Shown piece after piece: positions 11,248-43,368 of a stretch of 64,000 bases of DNA. Position 1 is the first letter of the stretch. Every line of letters begins with the position of its first letter. Below the pieces are notes generated by a model. It was not told where the DNA came from, did no database searches, and worked only from the letters and a program-made list of their open reading frames with translations. The position numbers and the translations under genes were made by a program. The DNA comes from Pseudomonadota bacterium (lineage in GTDB: Bacteria > Pseudomonadota > Gammaproteobacteria > Xanthomonadales > SZUA-38): positions 1,629 to 65,628 of the forward strand of contig JBCCVP010000009.1 of assembly GCA_039195135.1 (NCBI GenBank). Direction: 5' to 3'.

Positions 11248-11413
11248 CTTAACACCCGGAACTCGCACAACAGGAATCGGGAGCGGGATTAAACCGGGAT
11301 TCTGGTACTAGGTGACCCACAGGCGTAAGTCAGCTACTCAAAAGCGGGAAAGAGATCTGATATCACTCACGTGCTTCCGACCTGGCACTTGGTCCTGGAC
11401 CCTAGGATTGCGG

Positions 11414-12013
11414 ATGAGCGAAAGCGAACGACAATGGCTGGTCGCGGTACTGGTGTCCCTGCTGGTGGCGATTCGCATCGTGTCCCACCTGGTGGCGGGC
11501 GGTATGTTTCGCGACCAATCCGACGGGGTGGCCCGGGAGGGAGGCGTCTGGCTGGCGGCCGGCCTGCGACTGGTTTTTCTTCTCGGCGGTCTCGGGGGAC
11601 TTTTGCTATGGCTGGTGGAGCCCAGCTGGATGCCCTGGCAGCTGGACCTGCCGCCCGTGGCCCATTTGGCTGGTCTGGTGCTGGCAGAACTGGGCCTTGT
11701 ACTGCTTGTCTGGGTGCAGATTTCGCTGGGCGTGCATTTCTCCGGCACGCTGCACCTGCGCGATGATCATCAACTGGTGCGGCACGGACCCTATGCTCGG
11801 GTTCGGCATCCCATGTACAGCGCCTTCCTGCTGATTTTTTTCGGCCTGACGCTGCTGACGGGCAACGCTTTGATCGGCGCAGTCCTCCTCGGTTCTCAAG
11901 TCTGGGTGCTCGGCTGGCGGCTGCCGAAAGAGGAGCAGGCCCTCGCGGAGCGGTTTGGCTCTTCCTGGCAAACGTATCACGCGCAAACCGGGGCCCTAAC
12001 GCCCTGGTTTTAG
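11414..12013 (+). CDS. isoprenylcysteine carboxyl methyltransferase (ICMT)/phospholipid methyltransferase family membrane protein
   Basis: Multi-TM protein with LVRHGPYARVRHPMYSAFLL and a C-terminal EEQALAERFG motif. Start chosen at MSESERQ. Confidence 0.8.
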   Translation: MSESERQWLVAVLVSLLVAIRIVSHLVAGGMFRDQSDGVAREGGVWLAAGLRLVFLLGGLGGLLLWLVEPSWMPWQLDLPPVAHLAGLVLAELGLVLLVWVQISLGVHFSGTLHLRDDHQLVRHGPYARVRHPMYSAFLLIFFGLTLLTGNALIGAVLLGSQVWVLGWRLPKEEQALAERFGSSWQTYHAQTGALTPWF

Positions 12014-36385: not shown

Positions 36386-38296
36386 CTACCGCGGCAGCGC
36401 CAATGCGATCAAAAAGTCACCCGGCATCTCCGTGCCTTCGCGGGAGCCTCCCGCGGCCACCACAACATATTGGCGGCCCTGGTGCCGGTAGCTCATCGGA
36501 GAGGCATGGATGCCGGCGGGCATTGGGATTTTGGCGACGGACGTACCGGTGGAAACATCCATAGCGACCAGTGAGCGGTCCCAGGATGACGCTGCGAATA
36601 CGAGATCGCCGGCGGTGATCAGCGGGCCGCCGGACAAAGTAGAGCCCCACTTCGATGCTTCCGCATGGTCCGCCAGCCAGGGGAAAGGCGGGGCGGCGCT
36701 TTCCCAGAGGCGCTTGCCGCCCTGAAGATCAATGGCGACCCAGGTGCCCCAGGGGCCCCGCAGGCAGGGCAACAAAAGATCGGGGTTAAAAAGGTTGAAC
36801 CGGTTCATGCCGTAGGGTGTGCCTGCCTGCGCGGTAAATTCCACGTCCTGGCTGCCACCCTCTTCATTCGCCTCGCGGCGGGCAAACTCATTCCTCGGCA
36901 CCAGCTGTACCACCGTCGGCAGGCGGTTGAGTGCCAGCACCGCAATCTGACGCTCCCGGTGGATGGCGACGCTGCCCCAGTTGGTACCTCCGGCATTTCC
37001 GGGATAAAGCACCGTACCTTCCAGGCTGGGGGGTGTGAACGGACCTTCATAGCGTCGGCCCTTGAGCAGCTTTTCGCAGTGCCGGCGGTGTTCGGGACTA
37101 TGATCCCAGAGCTTCATCGACTCGGGATGGAGCTTGAGGTCCGCAGACGGCATGGGTTGGCTGGGAGAGGAAACTTCGCCCGGCACCTGAGTCTTCGGCA
37201 CCGGGTGTTCCCGGACGGGGTAAACCGGCTCGCCGGTCGCGCGGTCGAAGCCGAAAAAGTAGCCCATTTTAGTCGCCTGGAGCACGACGGCGCGCTGTTG
37301 GCCGCTGCGTTGTACGTGCGCCAGCGCAGGCTGGGAGGCCAGATCATAGTCCCAGAGATCATGGTGCACGGTCTGAAAGTGCCAGGCCACCTGGCCCGTT
37401 TGCAGGTCCACCGCCACAAGCGAGTTGGCAAAGCGATTGTCACCCAGGCGCTCGCCGCCAAAAAAATCGGGTGCGGGACTGGTCGTGGGCAGGTAAGCAA
37501 GCTGTCGGGTTTCATCGACGGCGGCCATCGACCACACGTTGGCGGCGCCGGTGCGTCGGGCCTGCGTGAGGGTCCAGCGAGATGCCATGGGGTGATCGTC
37601 GGATTTGGGAATCGGGTCGAAGGCCCAGCGGAGCTCGCCGCTGCGGCCATCAAAAGCGCGAATTGTTCCTGGCTCCATTTCGACGCCGCCGTTGTCGCCG
37701 ATCGACGAGCCCACAATGACCAGCCCACCGGCAACCGTTGGCGGCGAGGTCAGTGCGTACTCTCCCCGGCGGAAATGGCGAATACCCGCCGACAGGTCAA
37801 CTTCTCCGTTTTTTCCAAACGCGCGGCAGCGCCGGCCGGTGGTCCCGTCGAGCGCGATGAGTCGCGCATCCAGCGTACCGAGATAGATGGTCACCGCGCA
37901 GGGTTTTCCGGCCGTCCCCCGGCCCGCCGCCACGCCCCGGGCGGTGAACAGCTCCGAGTAGCTGCGCCCGAAATCGACCTCGGGGTCGAAGCGCCAGATC
38001 AGGCGGCCCGTGTCGGGTTCCAGCGCGTACACCCGGTTGAAGCCGGAAACGACGTATAGGCGACCGTCGACATAGATCGGGGTCGCTTTAAACGAGCTTT
38101 TGCGGGAGTGGCTGCTGCCGTCTGCCGCATCGCCGGTACGAAATTGCCAGGCCTGCTGCAGCGAACCGGCGTTGGCTGTGGTGATCTGGGTATGGGGGGA
38201 ATAGCGATCGCCCGCCAGCGTGGCGCCGACGTGCTCCCAGCTGCGGTCCGGCGCCGCAGCTGCCGCCAGCGTCGCGATCATTAGAAGCGCTTTCAT
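36386..38296 (-). CDS. periplasmic PQQ-dependent dehydrogenase (quinoprotein beta-propeller)
   Basis: Signal peptide MKALLMIATLAAAAAP. Repeated W-motif propeller blades. Length of about 636 aa is typical of glucose/alcohol quinoprotein dehydrogenases. Confidence 0.8.
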   Translation of the reverse strand: MKALLMIATLAAAAAPDRSWEHVGATLAGDRYSPHTQITTANAGSLQQAWQFRTGDAADGSSHSRKSSFKATPIYVDGRLYVVSGFNRVYALEPDTGRLIWRFDPEVDFGRSYSELFTARGVAAGRGTAGKPCAVTIYLGTLDARLIALDGTTGRRCRAFGKNGEVDLSAGIRHFRRGEYALTSPPTVAGGLVIVGSSIGDNGGVEMEPGTIRAFDGRSGELRWAFDPIPKSDDHPMASRWTLTQARRTGAANVWSMAAVDETRQLAYLPTTSPAPDFFGGERLGDNRFANSLVAVDLQTGQVAWHFQTVHHDLWDYDLASQPALAHVQRSGQQRAVVLQATKMGYFFGFDRATGEPVYPVREHPVPKTQVPGEVSSPSQPMPSADLKLHPESMKLWDHSPEHRRHCEKLLKGRRYEGPFTPPSLEGTVLYPGNAGGTNWGSVAIHRERQIAVLALNRLPTVVQLVPRNEFARREANEEGGSQDVEFTAQAGTPYGMNRFNLFNPDLLLPCLRGPWGTWVAIDLQGGKRLWESAAPPFPWLADHAEASKWGSTLSGGPLITAGDLVFAASSWDRSLVAMDVSTGTSVAKIPMPAGIHASPMSYRHQGRQYVVVAAGGSREGTEMPGDFLIALALPR

Positions 38297-38448
38297 GGTC
38301 AATCCCCGTGTCGGTCGCCACCACCGTGCGGCCCCATCGCGCGGGAAACAAGCGTTTTGGGTTGAACGGCAGATTTTTGCCACAAGCGGCGGCCGTCGCG
38401 TTCGGGTGTCCGTTTCGGTGGTCGGGTTCAGGTTGATAGGCGCCGAGA

Positions 38449-39015
38449 TCAGTTGATCCGAAATCGACTCTCCTGACTTACCTGCGCCTTAAGGAATGCC
38501 ATCTGGTCGGCCAGAATGCGTCGATTCGACAGAATCAGTCCTTCCGCCACGTTCGGGACATACGGGATCGCGAGCAGCTTCATGCGCAGTTCGCTGAGCA
38601 GTCTGCTGCCTTTACGCTGATTGCAGGCGCGGCACGCTGTCACCACGTTTTCCCAACGATCTCGGCCGCCTCGAGCTACGGGAATCACGTGGTCCCGGGT
38701 GAGCCAGGCCGGCGGCAGCACCTCCCCGCAGTACAGACACATGTGCCGATCCCGCTGAAACAGGCGCGCGTTGGTCAATGCGGGTACATCCCGTTGTTTC
38801 CGCCCGTTCCGGTTCCGGAAACGGGTCGCGACAATCGTATTCAGGTCCAGCCGAGACCGCTTCCCGGTCGCCCGCGAAACGCCGCCGCGCAGGCACAAGG
38901 TCGCTGCGCCGGCCTCCCAGGCGACCCGGTCCAGGCAGTACAGCGTGGCGCACTGCTCCCGGGTCAGCCAGCCCAGCGGCAGGCCGGCAATATCCAGTTT
39001 TAAAATCCACACCAT
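38449..39015 (-). CDS. HNH endonuclease family protein (188 aa)
   Basis: CLYCG...LTRDHVIPVARGG...WENVVTACRACNQRKG. AAGGAG RBS at 39028-39023, 7 nt before the ATG. Confidence 0.85.
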   Translation of the reverse strand: MVWILKLDIAGLPLGWLTREQCATLYCLDRVAWEAGAATLCLRGGVSRATGKRSRLDLNTIVATRFRNRNGRKQRDVPALTNARLFQRDRHMCLYCGEVLPPAWLTRDHVIPVARGGRDRWENVVTACRACNQRKGSRLLSELRMKLLAIPYVPNVAEGLILSNRRILADQMAFLKAQVSQESRFRIN

Positions 39016-39020
39016 CGTTT

Positions 39021-39052
39021 TGCTCCTTGAGAATGTGGATGTGTGAAGGGCC
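39021..39052 (-). repeat. 3' arm of the long-range stem (inverted copy of the boxA/GU-rich leader segment); contains the HNH Shine-Dalgarno
   Basis: The plus strand TGCTCCTTGAGAATGTGGATGTGTGAAGGGCC compares with the reverse complement of 40805-40836. The core 16/16 match is at 39032-39047. About 27 of 32 positions can pair, counting one G-U. Confidence 0.7.
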
Positions 39053-39057
39053 TTGAT

Positions 39058-39135
39058 TGGTAGCCGCCCTCGGACTCGAACCGAGAATCGCCTGTTTCTG
39101 AAACAGGCAGGTATGCCAATTCCCGTCAGACGGCT
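39058..39135 (-). tRNA. tRNA-like gene, anticodon CAG (Leu) on a class I scaffold with a weak D-stem; CCA encoded
   Basis: T-arm CTCGG-TTCGAGT-CCGAG. Acceptor AGCCGTC/GGCGGCT with A73. Anticodon arm CCTGT-TTCAGAA-ACAGG. The variable loop is only 5 nt. The D-loop GAATTGG is Leu-like, but only 2 of 4 D-stem pairs form. Confidence 0.55.
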
Positions 39136-39142
39136 TTGTTTG

Positions 39143-39213
39143 AGACGCTGCCCGGATTCGAACCGGGATTTGAGGATTTGCAGTCCTCCGCCTTACCCTT
39201 CGGCCACAGCGTC
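39143..39213 (-). tRNA. tRNA-Cys (GCA)
   Basis: Clean cloverleaf. Anticodon loop CTGCAAA, U73 discriminator, G13-A22 mismatch as in other tRNA-Cys. CCA is not encoded. Confidence 0.85.
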
Positions 39214-39223
39214 GTTCCAAAAG

Positions 39224-39299
39224 TGGACCGCCTGGAGGGACTCGAACCCCCGGCCTGCCGGTTCGTAACCGGCTGCTCTTCCAGCTGAGCTACAGACGG
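39224..39299 (-). tRNA. tRNA-Arg (ACG)
   Basis: 76 nt canonical cloverleaf. Anticodon loop TTACGAA, A20 present, CCA encoded, unusual C1-G72. Confidence 0.85.
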
Positions 39300-39303
39300 T
39301 AGT

Positions 39304-39378
39304 TGGTTTGAACCATCGGACTCGAACCGATATCTCCAGGGTCACGACCTGACGCTTTACCCTTAAGCTAGGCTCAAC
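39304..39378 (-). tRNA. tRNA-His (GUG)-like with encoded G-1, A73 and C33
   Basis: All four stems form well. The anticodon loop TCGTGAC has C at position 33. G precedes U1. CCA is encoded. Confidence 0.65.
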
Positions 39379-39424
39379 ACCGTGGGAGCCCGAAGAGTTG
39401 TCAAATCCCTGGCTCCGAAAAAAT

Positions 39425-39502
39425 TGGTCTGAAGGGCTGGATTTGAACCAGCGACCCCTCGGTTCCAAACCGAGAACTCTGACCAGACTGAGCTACCTTC
39501 AG
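39425..39502 (-). tRNA. tRNA-Pro (UGG)
   Basis: Canonical cloverleaf with C1-G72 and A73. Anticodon loop TTTGGAA. CCA encoded. Confidence 0.88.
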
Positions 39503-39545
39503 CTTTCGCAGCGTCGGGGCTGTTTGCTCCCGCCGCTGCCCATGT

Positions 39546-39621
39546 TGGTAATCCGGACAGGATTCGAACCTGCAATCTCGAGGTTGAAGGCCTCGCGGCT
39601 TAACCATTCGCCTACCGGATC
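39546..39621 (-). tRNA. tRNA with anticodon UUC (Glu) on a non-Glu-like scaffold, C33
   Basis: Exactly 76 nt in canonical numbering. The anticodon loop CCTTCAA has C33. There is a G1-U72 wobble and A73. The body does not resemble gammaproteobacterial tRNA-Glu. Confidence 0.6.
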
Positions 39622-39628
39622 AAAAAAC

Positions 39629-39703
39629 TGGCGCTGCGGATCGGGCTTGAACCGACACCTGCTGGATCGACAATCCAGTGCTCTAACCTTGAGCTACCGC
39701 AGC
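39629..39703 (-). tRNA. tRNA-Asp (GUC)
   Basis: Canonical cloverleaf. Anticodon loop TTGTCGA, G73, CCA encoded. Confidence 0.88.
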
Positions 39704-40048
39704 GGATAGAACGGCTGAGACTAGGCCGTTGCCAATCACCCTTTGACGGGATTACCCAGCACCTGCCGGCGCCGGTTGCCCGCGTGTCCACGCTCAACCG
39801 GCGGGCGCCGGCTTGAACGTAGGCGATCATGACTGCCTTTTTTGGAGTGTGGCGACTCACTCATCGCGCGTGTCTAGTCAGCAGTTTGCGTACCGTGAGC
39901 CTCGCGGGCTCCAAATAGGGGCTACCCAACCGTGCGGCGCACCGCCAAAGCCTTCTCTGCTTGCGGCATCGAAGGCCACCGGATTGTCTTGCGACTCCGG
40001 CCTTAAGCCACTTTCGACACGAACTGAGGCGCGTCTTTGCGTTTGCTA
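39704..40048 (-). ncRNA. ORF-free, tRNA-punctuated spacer of about 345 nt; candidate structured RNA of unknown class
   Basis: No credible ORF on either strand. Many local GC-rich hairpins, for example AAGGCCGGA...TCCGGTGGCCTT and CGCCGGTTG...CAACCGGCG. It is bounded by a tRNA-like element and tRNA-Asp. Confidence 0.3.
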
Positions 40049-40118
40049 AAGCATGTGCCGGACTCGAACCGGCTATCTCGATCTTGAGTCGAACGCTCTC
40101 CCGTTGAGCTACATTGCA
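40049..40118 (-). pseudogene. degenerate tRNA-like element, anticodon CAA
   Basis: Good D-arm (TAGCTCAACGGGAGAGC), anticodon arm (TTCGA-CTCAAGA-TCGAG) and T-arm (GCCGG-TTCGAGT-CCGGC). The variable loop is only 3 nt, the acceptor stem has 5 bp plus a bulge, and there is no CCA. Confidence 0.45.
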
Positions 40119-40596
40119 TCCCACTGCGACGTGCACGCCTCAGTCGCTTCATAGCCTTTTGGGCCACAAAATACGACACGCCGAATGCCTTTCGCCTGCC
40201 GGCTACTGAGCCGAATGTTCGGGACGCCGGCTCCACACCAGAACCCCGGACCTCTGGGCTGACGCGCTCGCTCGCAAAGCTCGCACTTTTCGCCCTATCC
40301 GTTACCCCTCACGGTTGACGATGTTGGTTTCGCGGGGTGCACCACCACGTGGTCTTTCACTGACCTGCATTCCCGCCCCGCCGTGGCGGTTAGGTGCATC
40401 AATCAGCTACTTCCGCGCATCGCTTGGCCGCTATCTCTGCCGAAGCAAAGACGAGGAGGCCAGACTTGCCTGGACTGACCGAGCTGCTGCTCGGCGAAGC
40501 GCCATGGGGACACTCCTTTCCCGCCGTTACCGACGGTTATCGACGCCAGGCCGCCAAGGCCGATCCCGGCCAGGCCGGTAATCGGACATTCCTAAC
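40119..40596 (-). ncRNA. ORF-free, tRNA-punctuated spacer of about 480 nt; candidate structured RNA of unknown class
   Basis: It lies between tRNA-Asn and the tRNA-like element. Only Arg/Pro-rich shadow ORFs are present. It is GC-rich with many hairpins, for example GAGCCG-N14-CGGCTC. Confidence 0.3.
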
Positions 40597-40672
40597 TGGC
40601 TGGCACGGCAGGACTCGAACCTGCACCACCCCGCTTAACAGGCGGGTGCTCTACCGTTTGAGCTTCGTGCCA
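40597..40672 (-). tRNA. tRNA-Asn (GUU)
   Basis: 76 nt. Anticodon loop CTGTTAA, U1-A72, G73, CCA encoded, unusual A8. Confidence 0.8.
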
Positions 40673-40673
40673 G

Positions 40674-40749
40674 TGGTGGATCGGGTTGGCGTCGAACCAG
40701 CAACGCGCCGGACTTCACCCGGCCGCTCTACCACTTGAGCTACCGATCC
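40674..40749 (-). tRNA. tRNA-Phe (GAA)
   Basis: 76 nt. Anticodon loop GTGAAGT, A73, CCA encoded, one C-A mismatch in the T-stem. Confidence 0.75.
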
Positions 40750-40804
40750 AGAAAACTCGCCGGGACCTCCCGCGTCGGGCACAAAACCACGTCGACCGGG
40801 CACC

Positions 40805-40836
40805 GGCATTTCACACATCCACATTGTTAAAGAGCA
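40805..40836 (-). promoter_or_regulatory. boxA (TGCTCTTTAACAA, 40836-40824) plus a GU-rich boxC-like tract; 5' arm of the long-range stem
   Basis: The minus strand reads TGCTCTTTAACAATGTGGATGTGTGAAATGCC. The first 13 nt are identical to the E. coli rrn boxA consensus. Confidence 0.7.
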
Positions 40837-40839
40837 CAG

Positions 40840-40882
40840 CCAGGGCACAAAAAAGCCCTGGTCAGTTGGTACCTGCCAGGGC
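40840..40882 (-). promoter_or_regulatory. boxB-position hairpin overlapping an alternative terminator-like hairpin
   Basis: The minus strand reads GCCCTGG-N14-CCAGGGC-TTTTTTGT-GCCCTGG. The middle heptamer can pair with either flank. Confidence 0.55.
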
Positions 40883-41112
40883 TTCACTTGCGTTTTGTCC
40901 TGAAAGGTCCGGTTTCTCGAGCCTTCCAGAACAAATGTCTGGAGGCTTTACCGCATCGGCTCACCATGGCGAAGGCAAAATGCATTCGCGCGCCGGCCGC
41001 GGTCATTCACGGGGCGCAGGTCAAGCATCTGCGTCGCACACAAACGGGCAGCAGCGTCTTTGACGCGCGCCGGCGTTTGAGCAGCGGTACTGATTGAGTT
41101 AGAAAATTGCAT
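40883..41112 (-). other. transcribed leader (about 230 nt) between the predicted TSS and the boxB/boxA elements
   Basis: Position is inferred from the promoter at 41147-41120. There is no convincing ORF. Confidence 0.4.
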
Positions 41113-41119
41113 GCCGGGG

Positions 41120-41147
41120 AGTATACGCCGGAAGAACGCCGTGTCAA
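41120..41147 (-). promoter_or_regulatory. near-consensus sigma70 stable-RNA-type promoter
   Basis: TTGACA (41147-41142), a 16 bp spacer, TATACT (41125-41120), then the GC-rich discriminator CCCCGGC. Confidence 0.7.
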
Positions 41148-41150
41148 CAC

Positions 41151-41190
41151 GTGAAATGAATTAGTATTCATTCGAAATGAATTTATTTGA
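41151..41190 (-). promoter_or_regulatory. AT-rich UP-element-like tract containing AATGAAT / ATTCATT / AATGAAT heptamers
   Basis: About 75 percent AT in a GC-rich genome, immediately upstream of the -35. GAAATGAAT occurs at 41153-41161 and 41174-41182, with the inverted ATTCATT at 41166-41172. Confidence 0.5.
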
Positions 41191-41230
41191 GGCAAATGCG
41201 ACCGCAGCGCCCGGACTCCGGTTTGCTACC

Positions 41231-41776
41231 TCAGCTGTCCGCCGCAGGCAAAAGCGCGGCGGTAGGTTTTGTTGGCGTGAGGGTGACAGCGACGCGTTGC
41301 TGGCTCGGGCTGCGGCGGGCAGAAAACTCCAGCGCCTGTTCATCCGGCGCTGCGCCAAAGAGGTTAAACGAGAGCGTCATCTCGCCCTCGGGGTTGTTGA
41401 GGGCATACCGGCCCATCGCCACAAGCTGAGAGCTGGGTGCGCTGGACGTGTCATGGGCATGGGCCGGTGAAAGCAGCAGGCCTTCAAGTGCGCAGGCACC
41501 TCCCGCATCGGACAGCACCACTCGCTCGATGACGGCCGCGGCGATAGCGTGCTGATGGCGATGGAATTCTTCGGTGGAGAGGCGACCGTCCTGATCATCG
41601 TCCACGCCGGCAAACGCGCTAACGGGGATGGAGACGACCAGATAGGCCCCGTCGTCGACCACGTTCAGCGTGCCCCGCTGGGCGGCCATGGGATGAGCCG
41701 CTGCCCCGGTGCACACCAGCGACAGAAGTAGACCCGCAACCGGCGAGGCCAGGGTTGAAGTTCTGAACGACCGCAT
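41231..41776 (-). CDS. secreted His-rich protein with a single EF-hand-like Ca-binding loop
   Basis: The signal peptide ends AAA|HPM, which predicts an N-terminal His. The loop DDDQDGRLSTEEF fits the EF-hand consensus. HRHQH and HAHD clusters are present. The start overlaps the upstream stop (TGATG). Confidence 0.6.
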   Translation of the reverse strand: MRSFRTSTLASPVAGLLLSLVCTGAAAHPMAAQRGTLNVVDDGAYLVVSIPVSAFAGVDDDQDGRLSTEEFHRHQHAIAAAVIERVVLSDAGGACALEGLLLSPAHAHDTSSAPSSQLVAMGRYALNNPEGEMTLSFNLFGAAPDEQALEFSARRSPSQQRVAVTLTPTKPTAALLPAADS

Positions 41777-43368
41777 CACAGCTCACCTTTGACGCAGCGC
41801 TGAAAGTAGGGGTAGGTGTCGGTCGCATAGTAGTGGTAGATGCCGCCCGGGAACTCTGGGGTCACACCCTCCCGGCCGTTGCACTCGTCCAGGTCGCCTG
41901 AGCCTTCGACGTATTCGAAGTCCTGGACAAACGTGCCAAGCGGGTAGAGATCGGTCGAAGGCCTGGCGCTGCTCACATTGGCTACGTGCTGATAGCTGCC
42001 CGTCATCGCCTTCAGCCCGGAGGAAGCGTCGTCCGCCACCACGTAGCCGTAGCGGGCGTAGATGGGAAAGCCATCCGCGGCCCAGCCGATCAGCGTCATG
42101 GCGGACTCGCTGCCGCCGCGCTTGGCGACAAATCCCTCCGGCATGCCGTGGTAGTGGTACTGGCCGTCGGGCTGCACGTGGGCGTTGTTCTGATCGGTGC
42201 CGAAGTCAAACGAATCCTGACCCAGGGCTTCGATCTGCCAGCTGCCGACCATGCCGTTCAGGGTGCAGTTGTCGCCAGAGTCGTTGCAGGTGCCGCCGGT
42301 GCCCGCGTCGATTTTGACTCCGTTGAGCACGAAGCCGATGGTGCCGCGGGGGCCGCCAAGTTCGGTAACGGCATCTGTCTTGACCGGTTCAAGGGTCATG
42401 TTTGCTGTCACGTTCTGCTCGGAAATTGTGCTGGGGTTACCGGCGTTGGGGAAGGTGCCCACTTCGTGGTCCGGAATGCCGTTCGCCGTGAGAGCGCGTG
42501 TGCCGCTGCTGCAGTCCCACTCCGACGTGCTGGTGATCGTGAGGGACGGCTGGTTGTTTGCGGTGGTGTCTGCGTAGCTGCAGAAAATACCCAGCGTGCT
42601 GTTGCTGACACTGGTGACCGCGGCAAGTCCAAAAGGCATGTCGTCGAGCCGCAGGGCGACAACCTGCAGGGCGTCGGCGCTGCTGTAACCAGCGTAGAAA
42701 CGCTGTGACTCCGGGAGAATAAGAGGGAGCAGGTCTTCGCTGGCGTTGTTGAGCGTCAGCATCACGTCGCCTTCGAGCAGCTCAATGGCGCCCACCGCAG
42801 CGCCGCTGACGAGGTTGGTGACCGCCGCCGTGCCGTTGCCTGCCGACTCGTGGATGCGCACAAGCTCGCTGGTCTGGGCATCACCGTCGACGTAGGTGAG
42901 CAGCCACTGGCCCGCCAGCTGGTCCACGACGTCGAGCCAGCCAAACTCAATCCGCTGGATGGGTATCGTTTCGCCCTCCCAGCTGAGGTTAGCGCTGCGG
43001 TGGTCAGTAAAGACGATGCTCAGCGGGCCCTGGGAAGACTCGGCGGTAAAGGGCTCGCTGTAGTCGCAGCCCAGGCACTGGCCGCTGCTGCTTTCGAACA
43101 CCGAACCGTCGAACTGGCCGATTTCCGTACCCGATGTGGCCGGCGAATACTGACCACTGGCGGACAGCCAGGCCGTGGAGCCGTCGGCGGCGTAGTGCAT
43201 GGACACCACGTACATCGTTTCGCCCTGGCGCTCAATCAGGTAACCACGGCCGGAGGCGGATGGGTCCCACCACCAGCCGTCTTCCGGATACGTGGACTGA
43301 GCAAAAGCGTTGATCGAACCTAGCAGGCCGAAGGTCAGGCCAATAGCGAACGTTCGGGCGGTCTTCAT
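41776..43368 (-). CDS. secreted YHYH domain protein
   Basis: Signal peptide MKTARTFAIGLTFGLLGSINAFA. The C-terminal half contains the GQYHYHGMPEGF motif typical of the YHYH family. Confidence 0.75.
   Translation of the reverse strand: MKTARTFAIGLTFGLLGSINAFAQSTYPEDGWWWDPSASGRGYLIERQGETMYVVSMHYAADGSTAWLSASGQYSPATSGTEIGQFDGSVFESSSGQCLGCDYSEPFTAESSQGPLSIVFTDHRSANLSWEGETIPIQRIEFGWLDVVDQLAGQWLLTYVDGDAQTSELVRIHESAGNGTAAVTNLVSGAAVGAIELLEGDVMLTLNNASEDLLPLILPESQRFYAGYSSADALQVVALRLDDMPFGLAAVTSVSNSTLGIFCSYADTTANNQPSLTITSTSEWDCSSGTRALTANGIPDHEVGTFPNAGNPSTISEQNVTANMTLEPVKTDAVTELGGPRGTIGFVLNGVKIDAGTGGTCNDSGDNCTLNGMVGSWQIEALGQDSFDFGTDQNNAHVQPDGQYHYHGMPEGFVAKRGGSESAMTLIGWAADGFPIYARYGYVVADDASSGLKAMTGSYQHVANVSSARPSTDLYPLGTFVQDFEYVEGSGDLDECNGREGVTPEFPGGIYHYYATDTYPYFQRCVKGEL

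Follow-up and report, generated by a model that had tools for sequence, protein, structure and literature searches.

The window analyzed here is a 64,000-nucleotide (nt) stretch of a contig (JBCCVP010000009.1) from a gammaproteobacterium of the Xanthomonadales, and all coordinates given without a locus name refer to it. On its minus strand, a control region that resembles the leader of an rRNA (rrn) operon heads a 2.1-kb untranslated operon composed of two tRNAs, the GOLLD RNA, and seven further tRNAs, followed by an HNH endonuclease gene. We consider it probable that this region controls a horizontally acquired tRNA-array/GOLLD operon from its 5' end, the operon being organized like a single rRNA-operon unit and combining an attenuator, antitermination, and pairing between the two ends of the transcript. 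The main new result is the predicted end pairing, a leader-trailer helix like that of 16S rRNA. An initial annotation made from the letters of this DNA had described an rrn-type promoter followed by a leader with boxB, boxA, and boxC-like elements and no rRNA behind it.

To place the window among its relatives, we searched for homologs of the HNH protein among one genome per species, with boxA playing no part in the selection. This HNH-anchored set comprises seven loci (L003, L006, L008, L009, L013, L015, and L016), all from gammaproteobacterial or unclassified Pseudomonadota metagenome-assembled genomes. In each of them an array of 7-25 tRNA genes ends at the HNH gene, and the 5' end of the array is in view. 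With the window they make up the eight loci referred to below. A boxA with zero or one mismatch is found about 100 nt before the first tRNA in all seven relatives and nowhere else in about 20 kb; orthologous loci thus do keep the element, a point that the initial annotation had singled out for checking. The 13-mer in the window (Table 1) is unique there and identical, letter for letter, to the E. coli rrnB boxA, whose leader we read directly, in line with the earlier equation of the two. It also fits the gammaproteobacterial boxA consensus GYTCTTTAANA (PMC5725501). By our own arithmetic, chance would give about 0.002 exact copies of the 13-mer in 128 kb (both strands), but the real proof against chance is its conservation in the relatives. 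Across the eight loci TCTTTAACAA is invariant while the adjoining boxC-like tract varies freely with its partner, which argues for a sequence-specific constraint beyond base pairing.

We also scanned metagenomes with the pattern T6-N8-22-TCTTTAACAAYNNGGAT, which demands a boxA and returned 120 loci. About 55 metagenome contigs match a hidden Markov model (HMM) of the whole ~440-nt leader, with E values of 1e-25 to 1e-97. As these leaders were selected via boxA, they were used for everything except boxA conservation. The 66 matches outside the leader family are AT-rich chance matches, and none precedes a 16S gene, so that no close relative's rrn leader turned up for comparison. At about 5757-5790 of L245 (Ga0233426_10000004, a 264-kb contig), a hairpin, T6, and GCCCACC are followed by GTTCTTTAACAATTTGGAT with no match to the leader HMM. 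This site resembles the terminator-boxA junction of the family and may be a distant relative.

The boxC-like tract lies directly after boxA and behaves like the boxC of rrn operons, as its first designation implied: it is part of the 5' strand in a covarying helix whose two sides enclose the entire array. In rrn operons, a leader-trailer helix of 25-40 bp encloses 16S rRNA, boxC is in its 5' strand, and RNase III cuts it (PMC10250234). The perfect 16-bp core in the window, AATGTGGATGTGTGAA, comprises the boxC-like tract flanked by the final two bases of boxA on one side and two further bases on the other. Its reverse complement occurs without mismatch as TTCACACATCCACATT, 1789 nt downstream; this sequence is 11 nt past the last tRNA and 17 nt short of the start codon of the HNH gene. 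All eight loci have such exact inverted matches, 9-23 nt long and always between the last tRNA and the HNH start, 0.9-4.75 kb from boxA, and the helix as a whole is 16-30 bp long. The leader-trailer duplexes have predicted energies of -36 to -45 kcal/mol, compared with -14 ± 3 for shuffled trailers. In a gapless leader-linker-trailer alignment of the eight loci (A2), 84.6% of the cells are paired versus 35-42% with a slid partner, and compensatory double changes occur in 14 of the 30 pairs, with none of 500 shuffles reaching the observed values. Where the boxC-like tract is divergent, the trailer tracks it, over 23 perfect pairs in L015 (GGATGATTGAAG) and likewise in L217 (GGATTTGTTGATAC). The trailer comes directly after the last tRNA in five long metagenome contigs; seven other contigs with 2-4 kb downstream have no trailer within the available sequence.

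Beyond the core, TGCTCTTT of the window boxA (40836-40829) pairs with AAGGAGCA (39028-39021). The latter includes the Shine-Dalgarno sequence of the HNH gene (39028-39023), and from this arrangement HNH translation may depend on formation or cleavage of the helix. An antitermination complex has been proposed to hold boxA and boxC at the RNA exit of the polymerase until the trailer emerges (PMC10250234).

The overlap of helix and boxA raises the question of whether the boxA-like sequence serves solely as a strand of the helix, with an incidental or ancestral likeness to rrn boxA and no recruitment of Nus factors. In every locus the helix does take in the 3' half of boxA, and in some it takes in all of boxA; in the E. 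coli leader-trailer helix structure outweighs boxC sequence (PMC10250234). We nevertheless find this improbable. In the eight loci chosen without regard to boxA, TCTTTAACAA does not vary, whereas the neighboring helix positions covary (14 double-change pairs), and the trailer complements the 5' part of boxA only partly, with columns 1-8 paired in four to eight of the eight sequences. The sequence also equals the functional consensus (PMC5725501), and paralogous attenuators before a protein gene, described below, have no boxA-like sequence.

A boxA can also act negatively, the Nus complex lowering downstream expression as in suhB or the site serving for Rho entry, the tna leader being an example. 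Repression through boxA is known for suhB and probable for rpsJ and ribH-nusB (PMC5725501). Such a role is very improbable here, as the next features are a structured RNA domain and tRNAs, and the rrn-type combination of boxA with a boxC-like tract and a leader-trailer helix is an antitermination layout. Repression at suhB reportedly acts on the translation of the adjacent reading frame.

Upstream, the AT-rich tract, TTGACA, 16-bp spacer, TATACT, and CCCCGGC of the initial annotation are all at the minus-strand sites it gave. A promoter scan of 37000-43000 returned this single promoter-like site; since shuffles average 1.0, the scan alone proves little. Across the family, TTGACA-15/19-TA[TGC]A[ACG]T (at most two mismatches in the -35) with a GC-rich discriminator is found in 48 distinct leaders, with the first purine 8-11 nt past the -10. 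The P1 promoters of rrn operons are stable-RNA promoters, with a GC-rich discriminator and a start site unusually far from the -10. By this likeness, the GC-rich discriminator and distant first purine would fit stable-RNA promoters, those of tRNA genes equally. The upstream tract had been called UP-like. It is indeed AT-rich and may act as an UP element; it also holds three conserved operator-like half-sites, with the family consensus GTTCAC-N6-GGAAC-N4-GTTCAC at the same position, ending about 10 nt before TTGACA. These half-sites upstream of the -35 are probably a transcription-factor site, so the tract is at least in part a probable regulator site. One locus, L252, has a Cro/C1-type helix-turn-helix (HTH) gene (11349-11747, plus strand) immediately before the array leader and oriented like it, and the 3' end of this gene bears a near-palindrome, GTTCGCGAAAC, that shares the GTTC half-site. 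The window has no counterpart of the HTH gene; its upstream open reading frame (ORF; 41779-41231) has no Pfam match.

The ~250 nt from promoter to boxA are no passive stretch; they hold a conserved ORF, a bistable switch, and a terminator. Wherever the promoter is visible, in 48 of 48 distinct leaders, an ATG 7-10 nt past the -10 opens a frame of 39-59 codons, with its stop 100-125 nt before boxA. The other two frames over the same span have a mean of 2.6 stops and are open in 0 and 3 of the 48 leaders. In the window the predicted leader peptide is MQFSNSISTAAQTPARVKDAAARLCATQMLDLRPVNDRGRRANAFCLRHGEPMR, and in many members the peptide ends in ...GEPM[TR], ...AAM[RH], or similar. Pfam and NCBIfam gave nothing credible for seven of the leader peptides. 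The peptide has no run of one regulatory codon and no obvious enrichment for the amino acids of the window tRNAs.

The first segment of the switch starts 0-3 nt past the stop codon in every subfamily and directly after it in the window. Segments 1 (CCUUCC type), 2 (GGAAGG), and 3 (CCUUCC) form two mutually exclusive hairpins, P1 (segments 1:2) and P2 (segments 2:3). Over 51 leaders their mean energies are -14.4 and -15.5 kcal/mol, respectively, compared with about -5.5 for shuffles. In an alignment of these 51 distinct leaders (A1), P2 is 90.5% paired, with compensatory changes. RNAalifold also found the terminator across the family, a GC-rich 11-12-bp hairpin (mean -21.3 kcal/mol) with a T6-9 run, which is 94.8% paired and has one pair that swaps UA and CG (24 versus 23 sequences). 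Taken with a four-way junction after boxA, P2 and the terminator are 87.4% paired versus 37-52% when slid, and the 28 compensatory pairs across the three are a value that none of 500 shuffles reaches. Segment 3 and the 5' arm of the terminator form a candidate antiterminator, complementary in all subfamilies, with -12.6 kcal/mol compared with -6.9 for shuffles and 85.6% pairing versus 8-52% when slid. The window leader folds with a z score of -2.8; its minimum-energy structure contains P2, the terminator, and the final hairpin and leaves boxA unpaired.

In most relatives, the four-way junction occupies ~95 nt between the boxC-like tract and the first tRNA (A1 columns 214-307; for example in L206 and L003). 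It is supported by covariation and has a closing stem, CGGGGCAG/CTGCCCCG, and three arms, with a conserved CAGACCC in one loop. The window has a single long hairpin there.

The hairpin called boxB is where the initial annotation placed it and ends 3 nt before boxA. Its 5' arm, however, is the 3' arm of the stronger, conserved terminator; its loop is the T run, and its 3' arm is 40846-40840. The boxB-like pairing is the weaker alternative of the two (mean -12.9 versus -21.3 kcal/mol). Its complementary third segment was seen across the family by eye, with the columns out of register. In rrn operons boxB has no assigned role (PMC10250234).

Three loci carry a divergent, paralogous attenuator about 500 nt upstream of the array leader and pointing away from it: L252 (11275-11030, minus strand), L225 (2760-2990, plus strand), and L265 (830-590, minus strand). 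This module is built of TTGACA-17-TAGATT, a GC-rich discriminator, a leaderless ORF of ~40 codons, a GGAAGG/CCUUCC hairpin, and then a terminator; beyond it come a Shine-Dalgarno sequence and a gene for a protein. Pfam was run on L252 alone, where the gene codes for a 501-amino acid (aa) PcfJ-like protein. None of the three modules has a boxA within two mismatches. Among these family members boxA is thus seen only where the downstream RNA is untranslated, and the boxA-less module before a protein gene supports a need for boxA only on an untranslated transcript.

These observations suggest how the region may work. Transcription from the sigma-70 promoter would start at or within ~3 nt of the AUG, and the upstream repeats may bind a regulator. 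The leader peptide would be translated up to a stop that abuts segment 1 of a five-segment chain (1:2, 2:3, 3:4, and 4:5, the last being the terminator). A ribosome at the stop would cover segment 1, allowing 2:3 and the terminator to form, and most transcripts would end after ~260 nt. Should ribosomes stall or fail to start, 1:2 would form and segment 3 would take the 5' arm of the terminator, giving read-through. The polymerase that reads through would transcribe boxA and, with NusB/NusE and NusA, NusG, and SuhB, would become processive and Rho-resistant over the following ~1.8 kb. Both boxA and the boxC-like tract would be held at the polymerase and would pair with the trailer emerging after the last tRNA. 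The resulting 16-30-bp helix would probably be cut by RNase III, freeing the array from the leader and the HNH mRNA, and pairing over boxA might also release the Nus factors.

The promoter, open leader ORF, bistable hairpins, terminator, invariant boxA, and covarying helix are documented by sequence comparison. We infer the Nus binding, Rho sensitivity, RNase III cleavage, start site, and direction of the attenuator. By analogy with rRNA (PMC4807359, PMC10250234) and with CRISPR arrays, boxA would recruit NusB/NusE, SuhB, and their partners against Rho. The rrn-type leader of the initial annotation is thus borne out in the conservation of its boxA and promoter and in the behavior of its boxC-like tract; its NusB/NusE dependence would be by this analogy. 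The direction of the attenuator is the weakest link. Read-through upon impaired translation agrees with what is known of long tRNA arrays, which translational stress induces (PMC8421152).

Several points weigh against this model. The unbiased evidence for boxA conservation is eight loci, two of which (L013 and L016) are near-identical. The trailers were located by a search for complementarity, which inflates the pairing figures somewhat, though the trailer is at the same position in every locus. In equilibrium folds boxA has a mean unpaired probability of 0.48 compared with 0.33 for the whole leader, an excess modest enough that we do not use it as support. As boxA is downstream of the terminator, it would give no help to a polymerase passing the terminator, and tRNA transcripts, being highly structured, may in any case be poorly suited to Rho. 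A hand count assigns about 50% of leader-peptide residues to tRNAs of the window array, compared with ~43% expected. The candidate antiterminator is much weaker than the terminator, and its covariation is not significant, with 28-313 of 500 shuffles reaching the observed measures. Being weak and without significant covariation, it leaves the direction of the attenuator a model.

The same points bear on a rival explanation in which the rrn-like part is right and there is no translation sensing. The ORF would then be an ordinary small-protein gene or merely be kept open, the terminator would be a fixed throttle, and the array would be expressed by constant low read-through or by promoter control through the repeats. 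A very stable terminator that forms together with P2 in the equilibrium fold would suit such a throttle, as would the antiterminator without significant covariation. Against a throttle stand two exclusive hairpins of equal energy, conserved with segment 1 at 0-3 nt past the stop in every subfamily, and a stop-to-boxA distance fixed at 100-125 nt while the ORF spans 39-59 codons. The operator-like repeats, and the adjacent HTH gene in some loci, do suggest promoter-level control, as in the Anabaena array (PMC8421152). Further points against this rival are the complementarity of segment 3 to the 5' arm of the terminator in all subfamilies and the reuse of the same module before a protein-coding gene. 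On balance we regard the absence of translation sensing as rather unlikely and prefer the attenuator.

Table 1. Features of the control region and operon in the window, in order of transcription.
Feature	Position	Strand	Details
AT-rich tract	41190-41148	-	~74% A+T; surrounding 2-kb windows 59-67% G+C
Half-sites in AT-rich tract	ATTCATTT 41182-41175; inverted AAATGAAT 41172-41166; ATTCATTT 41161-41154	-	Operator-like
Predicted sigma-70 promoter, putative stable-RNA type	-35 TTGACA 41147-41142; -10 TATACT 41125-41120	-	16-bp spacer; 11 of 12 consensus positions
GC-rich discriminator CCCCGGC	41119-41113	-	
Predicted leader-peptide ORF, leaderless or near-leaderless	40948-41112	-	54 codons + TAA; MQFSNS...RHGEPMR*; ATG 7 nt past -10
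Bistable switch	40899-40947	-	Segment 1 40947-40937; segment 2 40931-40920; segment 3 40908-40899
Intrinsic terminator	40849-40885	-	5' arm GAAGCCCTGGCAGGT 40885-40871; 3' arm ACTGACCAGGGC 40866-40855; T6 run 40854-40849
"boxB" hairpin CCAGGGC-N8-GCCCTGG	40840-40861	-	-15.2 kcal/mol folded alone
boxA TGCTCTTTAACAA	40836-40824	-	Sole match in window even at two mismatches
boxC-like tract TGTGGATGTGTG	40823-40812	-	Directly after boxA
Leader-trailer helix, 5' strand	40807-40836	-	Covers boxA and boxC-like tract; perfect 16-bp core 40825-40810
Hairpin, boxC-like tract to first tRNA	40759-40807	-	Window fold; reduced form of relatives' four-way junction
tRNA-Phe (GAA)	40749-40674	-	ARAGORN, Rfam
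tRNA-Asn (GTT)	40672-40597	-	ARAGORN, Rfam
~410-nt stretch	40187-40596	-	No Rfam match
GOLLD RNA, conserved 3' domain	39712-40186	-	RF02032, 133.7 bits, E 1.5e-36, full model length
tRNA-like element inside GOLLD	40117-40050	-	37.3 bits
Seven tRNAs (Asp, Glu, Pro, His, Arg, Cys, Leu)	39058-39703	-	ARAGORN, Rfam
Leader-trailer helix, 3' strand	39021-39050	-	Core TTCACACATCCACATT 39047-39032
HNH endonuclease gene, last in unit	38449-39015	-	188 aa; Pfam HNH_5, HNH, HNH_4

The transcript had been described as running into tRNAs and unknown RNA rather than 16S. The tRNAs and the lack of rRNA are confirmed, as Rfam at gathering thresholds gives tRNAs only and no rRNA in the 64-kb window; the unknown RNA is GOLLD. 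The GOLLD match in the window falls short of the curated 150-bit cut-off. At the same place in their arrays, L015 (153.5 bits), L008 (144 bits), and L003 (126 bits) encode a GOLLD RNA with a tRNA inside it, and we treat the window sequence as a putative divergent but true member despite its score. From its position and the published description, 40187-40596 is presumed to be the variable 5' domain of GOLLD, a region known to be poorly conserved (PMC12286853). The Foliamicus loci L013 and L016 have no GOLLD match at the gathering threshold and no room for one between their tRNAs; the leader is kept in both. GOLLD RNAs are found among tRNA genes, sometimes with a tRNA in the linker, and form 14-mer nanocages, and both GOLLD and tRNA arrays are often phage-borne (PMC12286853).

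The window array has 10 tRNA or tRNA-like genes in 1.7 kb, while L003, L013, L015, and L016 have 20-25. A tRNA array unit is defined as at least 20 tRNA genes at a density of at least two per kb (Tran et al., PMC4758250), and the window array is below the 20-gene threshold. HNH-linked long tRNA arrays are known from many phyla (PMC8421152), and the trio of tRNA array, GOLLD, and HNH has been described in mycobacteria (PMC9569102). Translational stress induces the long arrays of Anabaena, which are linked to HNH and rtcB genes, with rtcB co-regulated (PMC8421152). In L002 (1-1405) and L004 (1-940), the array is directly preceded by the 3' end of an RtcB-like ORF, recognized by eye only, and not by the leader. 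The closest match to the window HNH protein in the genome collection is at 66%. Most HNH relatives (L010-L081; Lysobacter, Pseudoxanthomonas, Thermomonas, Burkholderiales, and others; 50-58% identity) are solitary, with no tRNA array or boxA nearby. The HNH family is far broader than its association with tRNA arrays. A megablast search of 38500-42500 against a phage database gave a sole match, to the tRNA-Asn region of Pseudomonas phage LUZ100 (OP329100.1, 20828-20906), with 88.8% identity over 79 nt (window 40597-40675).

The layout resembles both rrn and nut leaders, and GOLLD and tRNA arrays being so often phage-borne (PMC12286853), one could take the region for a true rrn-operon remnant, for the product of an assembly error that removed rRNA genes, or for a phage nut site used by an N-like protein. 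We give these explanations almost no credence. The order of leader, array, trailer, and HNH gene recurs in seven independent genome assemblies and dozens of metagenome contigs, and an independent Logan assembly repeats the 3' part of the window array with the HNH gene. The window has no rRNA, and the flanking genes are chromosomal by their Pfam matches, coding for a pyrroloquinoline quinone (PQQ) dehydrogenase, a racemase, and a YHYH-domain protein. The G+C content is even, at ~0.62. The hairpin precedes boxA as in rrn leaders, whereas in the lambda nut site boxA precedes boxB. We noticed no N-like gene among the ORFs annotated beside the leader, though no search aimed at N was made. Two scans of IMG/VR likewise gave no family members: one for boxA with GGAT returned chance matches only, none fitting the leader HMM, and one with the boxA-independent P2 motif returned 13 matches, none with the leader or downstream tRNAs. 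Recurrence, the Logan assembly, the flanks, and the order of elements together contradict an rrn remnant, an assembly artefact, and a lambda-type nut site.

No second copy of the leader was found in the 64-kb window. Rfam searches of the ~440-nt leader with permissive thresholds gave noise only (His_leader, E 0.55; narK, E 2.8), the weak His_leader match being at 40847-40975 with 23.5 bits. The leader is thus an element without an Rfam family.

Compared with rrn operons, the region shares the boxA 13-mer, a hairpin that ends 2-3 nt before it, and a GU-rich boxC-like tract that supplies the 5' side of a long, covarying helix whose other strand is a trailer past the structured RNA, besides a strong promoter with a GC-rich discriminator and kilobases of untranslated transcript. 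In the E. coli rrnB leader as we read it, boxB GCCGCTGAGAAAAAGCGAAGCGGC, AC, boxA, and 14 nt precede boxC TGTGTGGG. In the window, by contrast, the boxC-like tract directly follows boxA, the helix reaches into boxA, and the boxB arm doubles as an arm of the terminator. Unlike in rrn operons, a tRNA array with GOLLD takes the place of rRNA as cargo, boxA occurs once with no second set inside the unit, a predicted leader ORF and terminator come before boxA, and the HNH mRNA comes after the trailer.

Among non-rRNA targets, boxA upstream of CRISPR arrays is proposed to keep Rho from acting on transcripts that are not translated (Stringer et al. 2020, cited via PMC7862264). Like those arrays, the operon described here has an rrn-type boxA before a long, repetitive, untranslated, and processed transcript. 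Unlike here, no leader-trailer helix, leader peptide, or terminator is known to have been described for CRISPR-array or other non-rRNA boxA targets. A survey of boxA elements explicitly left non-coding RNAs out of consideration (PMC5725501). The lambda nut site is similar in having boxA and a hairpin and in its use of host Nus factors, which for the window would be by inference; the reversed order, the rrn-type boxA, and the lack of family members in IMG/VR viral contigs set the leader apart from it.

The switch is like the trp, his, leu, thr, and pheA attenuators in having a short ORF, overlapping alternative hairpins, and an intrinsic terminator, and the position of the ribosome would be expected to choose the fold. 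Unlike in trp-type attenuators, the ORF is leaderless, long (39-59 codons), and without a run of regulatory codons, and it would control tRNAs rather than biosynthetic enzymes. Because there are five segments rather than four, absent translation should give read-through and not termination. Like known long tRNA arrays, the operon combines a dense array with a linked HNH gene (PMC8421152), has GOLLD, HNH, and array together as in mycobacteria (PMC9569102), and has a tRNA in the GOLLD linker (PMC12286853). It differs from them in being short in the window (10 genes versus 20-25 in the relatives) and in being on a gammaproteobacterial chromosome. The control known for the Anabaena array consists of repeats over the -10 and start site that are putative repressor sites (PMC8421152). 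Full-text literature searches found no paper in which tRNA arrays or GOLLD are connected with boxA, a leader peptide, or attenuation, and no report, among the papers searched, of a terminator or leader-trailer helix for any tRNA array. Each component is known; the combination and its cargo are new.

Antitermination through boxA and Nus factors, like the leader-trailer helix, is a textbook trait of rRNA operons. With the full set of boxA, boxC-like tract, and covarying end-to-end helix around it, a tRNA array with GOLLD would make up a third class of boxA cargo next to rRNA and CRISPR arrays. A leader-peptide attenuator would also be a different and more direct way of sensing translation than the Anabaena repressor (PMC8421152). 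GOLLD has been without a known function since 2009, and the leader offers for it a promoter, a predicted inducing condition, and a predicted processing pathway. It is possible, though we put this forward only tentatively, that the unit is a self-contained pseudo-rRNA operon that reads translation capacity by means of its leaderless leader peptide. Ribosome stalling or tRNA damage would fire a Nus-modified polymerase that would not only transcribe backup tRNAs and GOLLD nanocage RNA but also chaperone and bookend them, and pairing of the trailer with boxA would make the RNase III site and strip off the antitermination complex where the unit ends. If so, GOLLD would have a part in countering translation stress or toxins and would be made with the help of the rRNA machinery.

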